From assembly GCF_050920415.1 (NCBI RefSeq), contig NZ_CP169309.1: a stretch of 64,000 nt of DNA. The stretch is one strand, 5' to 3'. The position numbers are program-made. Positions 1 through 3,000 of the stretch are shown piece after piece (the stretch's first letter is position 1; each line of letters starts with the position of its first letter). Source of the stretch: Escherichia coli (GTDB taxonomy: Bacteria > Pseudomonadota > Gammaproteobacteria > Enterobacterales > Enterobacteriaceae).

Positions 1-3000
1 ACGGTGGTGGTGAACACGGTGGCCTCAGAAAATCCGGATGAAGCCGGGCGTTACAGTATGGACGTTGAGTACGGCCAGTACGGTGTCATCCTGCTGGTTG
101 AAGGTTTTCCGCCGTCACATGCCGGCACCATCACCGTGTATGAAGATTCTGAGCCGGGGACGCTGAATGATTTTCTCGGTGCCATGACGGAGGATGATGC
201 CCGTCCGGAGGCACTGCGCCGTTTTGAACTGATGGTGGAAGAGGTGGCGCGTAACGCGTCCGCAGTGGCACAGAACACGGCAGCCGCGAAAAAATCCGCC
301 GGCGATGCCGGAACATCTGCCCGTGAGGCGGCAACCCATGCGACTGATGCTGCAGGCTCAGCACGCGCCGCCAGCACGTCCGCCGGACAGGCTGCGACGT
401 CAGCACAGGAAGCATCTTCCGGCGCAGAAACAGCCTCAGCAAAGGCCGCTGAGGCATCAAAAAGTGCTGCCGCTGCAGAGTCCTCAAAAAGCGCGGCGGC
501 CACCAGTGCCGGTGCCGCGAAAACGTCAGAAACGAATGCGGCAGCGTCACAACAATCAGCCGCCACGTCTGCATCCACCGCGACCACGAAAGCGTCAGAA
601 GCTGCCACGTCAGCCAGGGATGCGGCGGCCTCAAAAGAGGCGGCAAAATCATCAGAAACGAGCGCAGCCTCGAGCGCCGGTAGTGCAGCTTCCTCGGCAA
701 CGGCGGCAGGAAATTCCGCGAAGGCGGCAAAGACGTCTGAGACGACGCCAGGTCTTCTGAAACGGCAGCGGAACAGAGTGCCTCCGCAGCAGCAGGCTCA
801 GAAACTGCCGCTGCATCATCGTCCCGTGAGGCGTCAGTTAAAGCGGAGGAGGCATCAGCCAGTGCCACCGCCGCCGGAAAATCGGCAGAAAGTGCCGCAT
901 CGTCCGCTTCAGCAGCCACAACGAAGGCTGGCGAAGCCACTGAACAGGCCACTGCAGCAGTGAGGTCTGCTTCCGCTGCGAGGACATCCGAGACGAACGC
1001 GAAAGCGTCGGAAACCCGTGCAGAATCTTCAGAAACGGCTGCCGTATCGTCCGCCAGTTCGGCGGCGTCATCAGCATCATCGGCGTCAGCTTCAAAAGAT
1101 GAGGCGGCAAGGCTGGCGTCAGAGGCGCAGGGCAGTGCCACGACGGCATCCGCGAAGGCGACAGAGGCAGCTGGCAGTGCGACAGCGGCAGCACAGAGCA
1201 AAAGCACGGCAGAATCCGCGGCAACGCGCGCCGAGACTGCGGCAAAACGGGCGGAGGATATTGCGTCTGCCGTGGCGCTTGAGGATGCGAGCACGACGAA
1301 AAAGGGGATAGTCCAGCTCAGCAGTGCAACCAACAGCACTTCCGAGTCACTGGCGGCAACACCAAAGGCCGTAAAAGCCGCCTGTGAGAATGCTGAGAAA
1401 CGACTGCAGAAAGATAAGAACGGTGCGGATGTCCCCGACAAAGACACCTTTACGAAAAATATTGGTGCCTGCCGTGCCTTCGGTGGGGCCGTAAGCACAA
1501 CGACAGGAGACTGGACGACCGCACAGTTTATCGGGTGGCTGGATTCTCAGGGCGCATTTAACCACCCATACTGGATGTGCAAGGGCTCCTGGTCTTACGG
1601 TAATAATAAAATCATCACGGATACGGGCTGCGGAAATATTCATCTCGCCGGCGCTGTCATTGAGGTGATGGGGATAAAGTCAGCGATGACGATCCGCATA
1701 ACCACACCGACAACATCCAGCGGAAGTGGAACGGCGAATGCGCAGTTTACCTATATTAATCATGGTGATGGTTATTCCCCTGGCTGGCGTCGTGACTACA
1801 ACACGAAAAACAAGCCACCGGCCTTTGCGCTGGGAAAAACCGGGGAAACGCTCGCCGATACAGATGCCGTCGCCTGGAACCTGGACAGTGGCGCTTATTG
1901 TGCACAGGATGGTGGCGCATCATCCTTAATTCTTCATTTTAATACAGGGGAAGGCAGCTGCCCCGCGGTCCAGTTTCGGGTGAATTACCGGAATGGCGGG
2001 ATATTTTACCGCTCCGCCCGTGATGGCTATGGCTTTGAGGCGGACTGGGAGCGTCTGTTCACGACAACGGGCGGGACCCTGGAAGGTGCTGTGGGTATCG
2101 GTGCACAGAATACGCTGGGCGGCCATTCACTTGCGCTGGGGAGGGGCGACACAGGCCTGAAACAAAACGGCGACGGTAATCTTGATGTTTACGCCGGTAA
2201 CGCACGTGTAATGCGCTTTACAAACGGCAGCATTCAGGTCAGTAAAGGGCTGAATGTGTCCGGGCGCGTTAATCCTTCCGATTACAGTAATTTTGATATC
2301 CGCTATGTCAGGGATATCCGGCTGGGTACGCGTGTTGTTCAGGGCATGCAAAAAGGCGTGACGTATGAGAAATCCGGCCATGTCATTACGGGGCTTTGTC
2401 TTGTCGGGGATGCTGATGGCGATAACTCAGCGGTTTACCGGCCGGTGCAAAAATACATAAACGGCACATGGTTTAACGTATCGCAGGTATAAGTAATGCA
2501 GCACTTAAAAAATATTACAGCAGGTAATCCCAAAACCGTTGCTCAGTATCAACTGACAAAAAATTTTGATGTTATCTGGTTGTTTTCAGAGGACGGAAGA
2601 AACTGGTATGAAGAAGTGAGTAACTTTCAGAAAGACACAATAAAGATGGCTTACGATGAAAACAATATTATCGTTGCCATCACCCGGGATGCCTCAACGC
2701 TTAATCCGGCGGGATTAAGTGTTGTTGAGGTGGCAGATATAACGGCGAACCGCCGTGCAGACGATTCGGGGCAGTGGATGTATCTGGACGGTCAGGTGAG
2801 GAAACGCGAGTATTCGTCAGAGGAAGTCAACAGACAGACAGAGCAACGCAAGGCCACGCTGCTCAGTGAAGCAGATACCATCATCCGGCTTCTGGAGCGG
2901 TCGGTAAGGCTGAGTATGGCCACGGAAGAAGAGCGAACCCGGCTGTCGGCCTGGGAGCGTTACAGCGTCCTGCTCAGCCGGGTGGATTCAGCGAACCCGG

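Follow-up and report, generated by a model that had tools for sequence, protein, structure and literature searches.

In laboratory phage lambda, the side tail-fibre gene stf is interrupted by a frameshift that, in the account given by PMC12617516 in a passage citing Hendrix & Duda 1992, prevents the synthesis of side fibres and leaves plaque number unaffected. The lesion of lambda PaPa divides the gene into two open reading frames ahead of tfa, orf-401 and orf-314 in NC_001416, and the resulting particles lack side fibres and are viable through gpJ. A second point of comparison is provided by gpH of phage P2 and by the P2-like fibres, and a third concerns sequence quality, as nanopore consensus errors in Enterobacteriaceae have been described as falling mainly at Dcm motifs and homopolymers (PMC6591954). 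Here we describe an stf gene at the start of a 64,000-nucleotide stretch of Escherichia coli contig NZ_CP169309.1, hereafter the window. It belongs to the same gene family as lambda PaPa stf and carries the same kind of lesion, a frameshift that leaves two open reading frames (351 aa and 510 aa) ahead of tfa. The same outcome as in lambda PaPa would be expected of the window allele. The two genes differ in the site of the frameshift, which lies at codon 280 in the window and, in lambda, at about codon 400, where orf-401 ends, and in the C-terminal half of the fibre, which is P2 gpH-like in the window and unrelated to lambda orf-314. Moreover, the lambda lesion has been experimentally established, whereas that of the window may be a mere assembly error.

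A tail-fibre gene read in two frames

The closest public record to the window is NZ_CP169399.1, from E. coli MFDS1022581, which is nearly identical to the window sequence but distinct from it (hereafter the sister record). The features on which the following description depends are listed below in window coordinates, all on the plus strand. The first 93 nt of stf lie upstream of window position 1 and the remainder of the gene is inside the window.

1-2492, plus strand: stf, side tail-fibre gene, with its frame-1 part up to 744 and its frame-3 part from 747
738-740, plus strand: TGA in frame 3, the 5' limit of the downstream reading frame
745-746, plus strand: site of the missing A, which turns the Asn-280 codon from AAC into AC (alignment, base-by-base comparison and genome search)
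748-752, plus strand: CCAGG, a Dcm methylation motif located 2 nt 3' of the missing A, with no other Dcm or Dam motif in 700-800
960-2492, plus strand: downstream frame-3 ORF of 510 aa, with GTG at 960 as the first possible start, encoding the P2 gpH-like receptor-binding part
961-963, plus strand: TGA ending the shifted frame 1, giving a predicted truncated product of 351 aa (279 native and 72 out-of-frame residues)
2496-3026, plus strand: tfa, tail-fibre assembly (chaperone) gene, intact, 176 aa (phrog_136, E = 7.9e-72; PF02413 Caudo_TAP; annotation of the sister record)
3291-4574, plus strand: 3' fragment of ydfJ at the prophage/chromosome junction (annotation of the sister record and ORF), with ydfI next

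Translation of frame 1, which is already open at window position 1, yields ...SAKAAKTSETT and then passes out of frame into PGLLKRQRNRV.... The out-of-frame string (T-P-G-L-L-K-R-Q-R...) is basic and rich in Pro, Arg and Gln, unlike the Ala/Ser/Thr-rich fibre sequence. In frame 3, the TGA at 738-740 is followed by DDARSSETAAEQSASAAAGSE... with no stop until 2490-2492, and this reading (DDARSSETAAEQSASAAAGSETAAASSS...) runs uninterrupted to the end of the gene at 2492. Our translations thus agree with the first-pass annotation, which had read frame 1 up to ...AKTSETT and let frame 3 open after the TGA at 738-740, and its coordinates were right. The single uninterrupted reading frame of lambdoid Stf is broken in the window gene by a -1 frameshift at 745/746.

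Owing to the GC-rich, repetitive codon usage of the shaft region, the shifted frame 1 meets no stop for 72 codons past the deletion. Shadow ORFs also run through the Ala/Ser-rich shaft, at 131-1498 on the minus strand (455 aa) and at 305-760 in frame 2 of the plus strand, and these are a by-product of the same codon usage. A restart of translation at the GTG at 960 was considered and is unlikely: the upstream sequence (GCCACTGCAGCA) holds no Shine-Dalgarno ahead of it, and the product would be devoid of the PF08400 attachment domain.

When the missing base is restored, the protein carries the prophage tail-fibre N-terminal domain PF08400 (phage_tail_N) at residues 1-134 (Pfam, E = 3.8e-72) and matches tail-fibre families of PHROGs along its whole length, while NCBIfam gave no match for either Stf or Tfa. 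The N-terminal 326 aa show 84% identity to lambda orf-401, in which the local motif AAKTSETNARSSETAAE is kept too, and residues 459-861 show 61.8% identity to the P2 tail fibre gpH (E = 5e-148). These matches uphold the earlier naming of the locus as a prophage tail-fibre (stf) gene. The window gene is an Stf homologue with a lambda-type N-terminus, an Ala/Ser-rich shaft and a P2 gpH-like tip, followed by tfa. Compared with P2-like fibres, window Stf shares the region of residues 459-861 and differs in its N-terminal attachment domain, which is lambdoid (PF08400). A lambdoid Stf with a P2-like tip reflects the familiar mosaicism by which lambdoid and P2-like phages exchange their fibre tips.

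The gene order is that of lambdoid Stf, after gpJ and before tfa, with the position of gpJ taken from the sister record. That record has both genes as neighbours of stf, and so do all seven of the contigs listed as carrying the intact protein. Beyond tfa come the 3' fragment of ydfJ and ydfI, which places the prophage insertion within ydfJ. In NZ_OU342919.1 and NZ_CP076272.1, the same stf-tfa module (99.4-99.7% identity) adjoins uspF/ompN rather than ydfJ, and in NZ_OU342919.1 genes of the enterotoxin A family lie upstream of it; prophages integrated at different sites thus carry this tail module.

One base fewer than the intact alleles

Alignment with three relatives revealed that one base is lost in the window, where GAGACGAACGCC of the relatives corresponds to GAGACGACGCC. 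The base-by-base comparison with the sister record placed the loss at 745/746, with GAGACGAACGCCAGG in the relatives set against GAGACG-ACGCCAGG in the window, so that the window reads GAGACGACGCCAGG across the deletion and one A of an AA pair is absent. The 2,500 bases at window positions 1-2500 were matched over 2,501 bases in the sister record and in the next 28 best matches. In the sister record, positions 2543315-2545900 hold the same DNA plus one A and form a continuous 861-codon ORF. The first-pass annotation had suspected one missing base near 745-750 and had named alignment to intact stf genes as the check; that alignment narrows the suspicion to exactly one A, whose restoration gives the 861-codon ORF. 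Since homologues were compared directly, chance does not enter into this result.

Apart from this A, window positions 1 to 23224 are base-identical to the sister record. Because the next difference falls at 23225, a compensating second indel or a larger rearrangement is ruled out. The remainder of stf and the whole of tfa are base-identical to the intact allele, with no sign of accumulated decay. The intact allele is found in NZ_CP169399.1, in AP025751.1 and in many draft assemblies, and its DNA differs from that of the window gene by this single A alone. Most of these genomes have gpJ upstream, tfa downstream and an insertion in ydfJ, as in the window prophage, and their copies form a single 861-codon ORF, unlike the split stf of the window. 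In the collection, 50 blocks list the exact intact 861-aa protein, which was read on at least 24 contigs; the intact 36-mer was present in every relative fetched.

We searched for the deletion with a 60-nt query centred on the site against 5,426 complete E. coli genomes. The query matched 868 records in 866 genomes with a best identity of 98.4% (60/61), and all 40 matches listed span 61 nt, that is, they contain the extra base. An ungapped 60/60 match to the deletion allele was found in none of the 868 records and none of the 866 genomes. Likewise, a 25-mer containing the deletion was absent from IMG/VR in an exact search, and neither the 351-aa nor the 510-aa split product was on record in the exact-protein index. 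As far as these searches extend, the stf deletion is private to the window sequence.

The annotation of the relatives deserves a separate comment. In NZ_CP169399.1, NZ_OU342919.1 and NZ_CP076272.1, PGAP called the intact stf a pseudogene ('incomplete; missing C-terminus') ending at codon 521, and the last 1 kb of the gene was left without annotation, though it is part of one continuous ORF with a C-terminal part matching P2 gpH. This call seems to be an artefact that the mosaic fibre tip causes in annotation, and not a real truncation.

Consensus error or recent mutation

The first-pass annotation had offered a pseudogene or a homopolymer error as the two explanations. Our results support this pair of alternatives and lean to error, with the reservation that 'homopolymer', usually a run of 3 or more bases, is only loosely apt for an AA pair beside CCAGG. 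We regard a consensus error as the probable cause of the stf break, with moderate confidence. The missing A would then be a single-base deletion typical of long-read assemblies, placed 2 nt from a Dcm-methylated CCAGG; the DNA of the strain itself would be unchanged, the real stf gene would be intact and there would be no biology to explain. Like the nanopore errors described in PMC6591954, the stf lesion is a single-base deletion in an enterobacterial assembly close to CCAGG, and a second private deletion of the window falls in an A7 run. Unlike the error sites described there, the stf deletion lies outside the 5-nt Dcm motif and in a 2-nt run, which counts against an error.

The second private single-A deletion is located at 52070, where the window has A6 (52064-52069) and the sister record has A7. 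The three closest genomes are each one base longer over this stretch, the additional base being the seventh A in the sister record, and no exact match to the A6 stretch of the window was found among the complete genomes. This run is intergenic and lies upstream of a fimA-like operon. Over the 64 kb, the window and the sister record differ by three 1-base indels (stf 746, 52070 and 62579) and three substitutions, and each indel is a deletion in the assembly bearing it. Real single-base indels in E. coli arise at roughly a tenth of the frequency of substitutions. Measured against this expectation, the ratio of three to three makes errors in one or both assemblies likely, and it is the kind of imbalance that long-read consensus errors, and not real mutations, would produce.

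Private losses were also found in the sister record. In the window, ydeO is intact (61962-62723, 253 aa), whereas NZ_CP169399.1 has one A fewer in the poly-A at 62579 and the gene is annotated there as frameshifted. Its portal gene measures 1601 nt, compared with 1602 nt in all relatives listed, and PGAP marked six genes within a stretch of about 90 kb of this record as 'frameshifted'. These private 1-base deletions and PGAP flags suggest that the technology applied to this clone tends to produce deletions.

The three substitutions relative to NZ_CP169399.1 are located at 23225, 27742 and 51286. They comprise a synonymous change in glsB and a D-to-E change in YneE, both of them window-derived relative to the outgroup, together with P645Q in an ankyrin-repeat protein; the protein index has no entry for the YneE D-to-E allele of the window. 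Inspected by eye, their contexts showed no Dcm-related pattern, so the methylation argument rests on the single CCAGG beside the stf deletion. The presence of private derived substitutions speaks against the error reading, since the source could be a truly diverged lineage with time for a real indel. Prophage accessory genes are known to decay and stf is dispensable in lambda, which also weighs on that side.

Several larger differences between the two records were observed. The sister record carries an IS2 element (about 1.33 kb, with a TTGCT target duplication) at the position corresponding to window 46729-46733, and the window site is empty. The order of 9-bp tandem repeats (GCTGGTCTT units) at window 48451-48500 (48451/48492) differs from that in the sister record with no net length change; these repeats are part of a gene on the minus strand that encodes a hypothetical repeat protein (WP_432781198.1 in the sister record). 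At about window 45398-45783, a hypothetical protein beside an MbcA/ParS/Xre-family antitoxin gene is marked 'frameshifted' in the sister record. The window is identical there, and the frameshift is therefore common to both; the frameshifted gene may be a decayed toxin partner.

A real deletion is a plausible alternative, somewhat less probable than an error. It would be a very recent, strain-private -1 frameshift making stf a pseudogene, through neutral prophage decay and not as a regulated event. The frame break is unambiguous in the sequence, and the window lineage has other private derived changes, which indicates some real divergence. A precedent exists in the laboratory lambda stf frameshift (orf-401 and orf-314 in NC_001416), for which the passage noted above reports an unaffected plaque number (PMC12617516). 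In addition, the sister record, with its IS21 insertion and frameshifted portal gene, suggests that decay of this prophage may already be under way, so that stf could be under relaxed selection. Set against this are the restriction of the deletion to this one sequence across the complete E. coli genomes, IMG/VR and the protein index, the excess of 1-base deletions over substitutions in assemblies of this clone, which points to error, and the identity of the rest of stf and tfa to the intact allele.

A narrower version of this alternative holds that the deletion is real and selected, with loss of the side fibre benefiting the lineage in a natural replay of lambda PaPa in a wild food isolate. 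If so, the benefit might lie, for example, in released particles no longer re-adsorbing to debris or to sibling cells, or in the loss of a product that is costly or antigenic. We consider such a selected loss very improbable.

That the break is a programmed -1 ribosomal frameshift, transcriptional slippage or a phase-variable switch controlling the full-length fibre has a negligible probability: a -1 shift anywhere in 741-960 would rejoin both frames, which is its only support, but no X XXY YYZ heptamer occurs in any frame within 700-960, the homopolymers in 600-1000 are all of 4 nt or fewer (the longest, AAAA, is away from the site), the break is an AA pair with no repeat tract, and the two-frame layout is not conserved, with relatives in a single frame, the break in 0 of 866 genomes and the intact protein widespread. 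Programmed frameshifting and transcriptional slippage were accordingly rejected for want of a slippery heptamer, a long run and conservation of the break, and phase variation was rejected as well, the site having no simple-sequence repeat tract and the deletion being present in none of the 868 matching records.

Meaning for annotation and for the prophage

Whether it proves to be a consensus error or a real deletion, the finding is an ordinary one, with lambda PaPa as the classic precedent. We propose that the gene be annotated as stf, 'frameshifted, verify', and that inferences on host range or on a defective prophage be drawn only with read support. If the missing A is an artefact, it would serve as a quality flag for the source assembly, in which these 64 kb contain another private single-A deletion.

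A real deletion would add another pseudogene private to a strain, and the accessory prophage gene affected is one known to be dispensable in lambda. The gene would then encode a 351-aa N-terminal fragment without the end of the shaft and the receptor-binding tip. Provided that the prophage is also inducible, its particles would lack side tail fibres, as in lambda PaPa, and gpJ-mediated adsorption would be unaffected.
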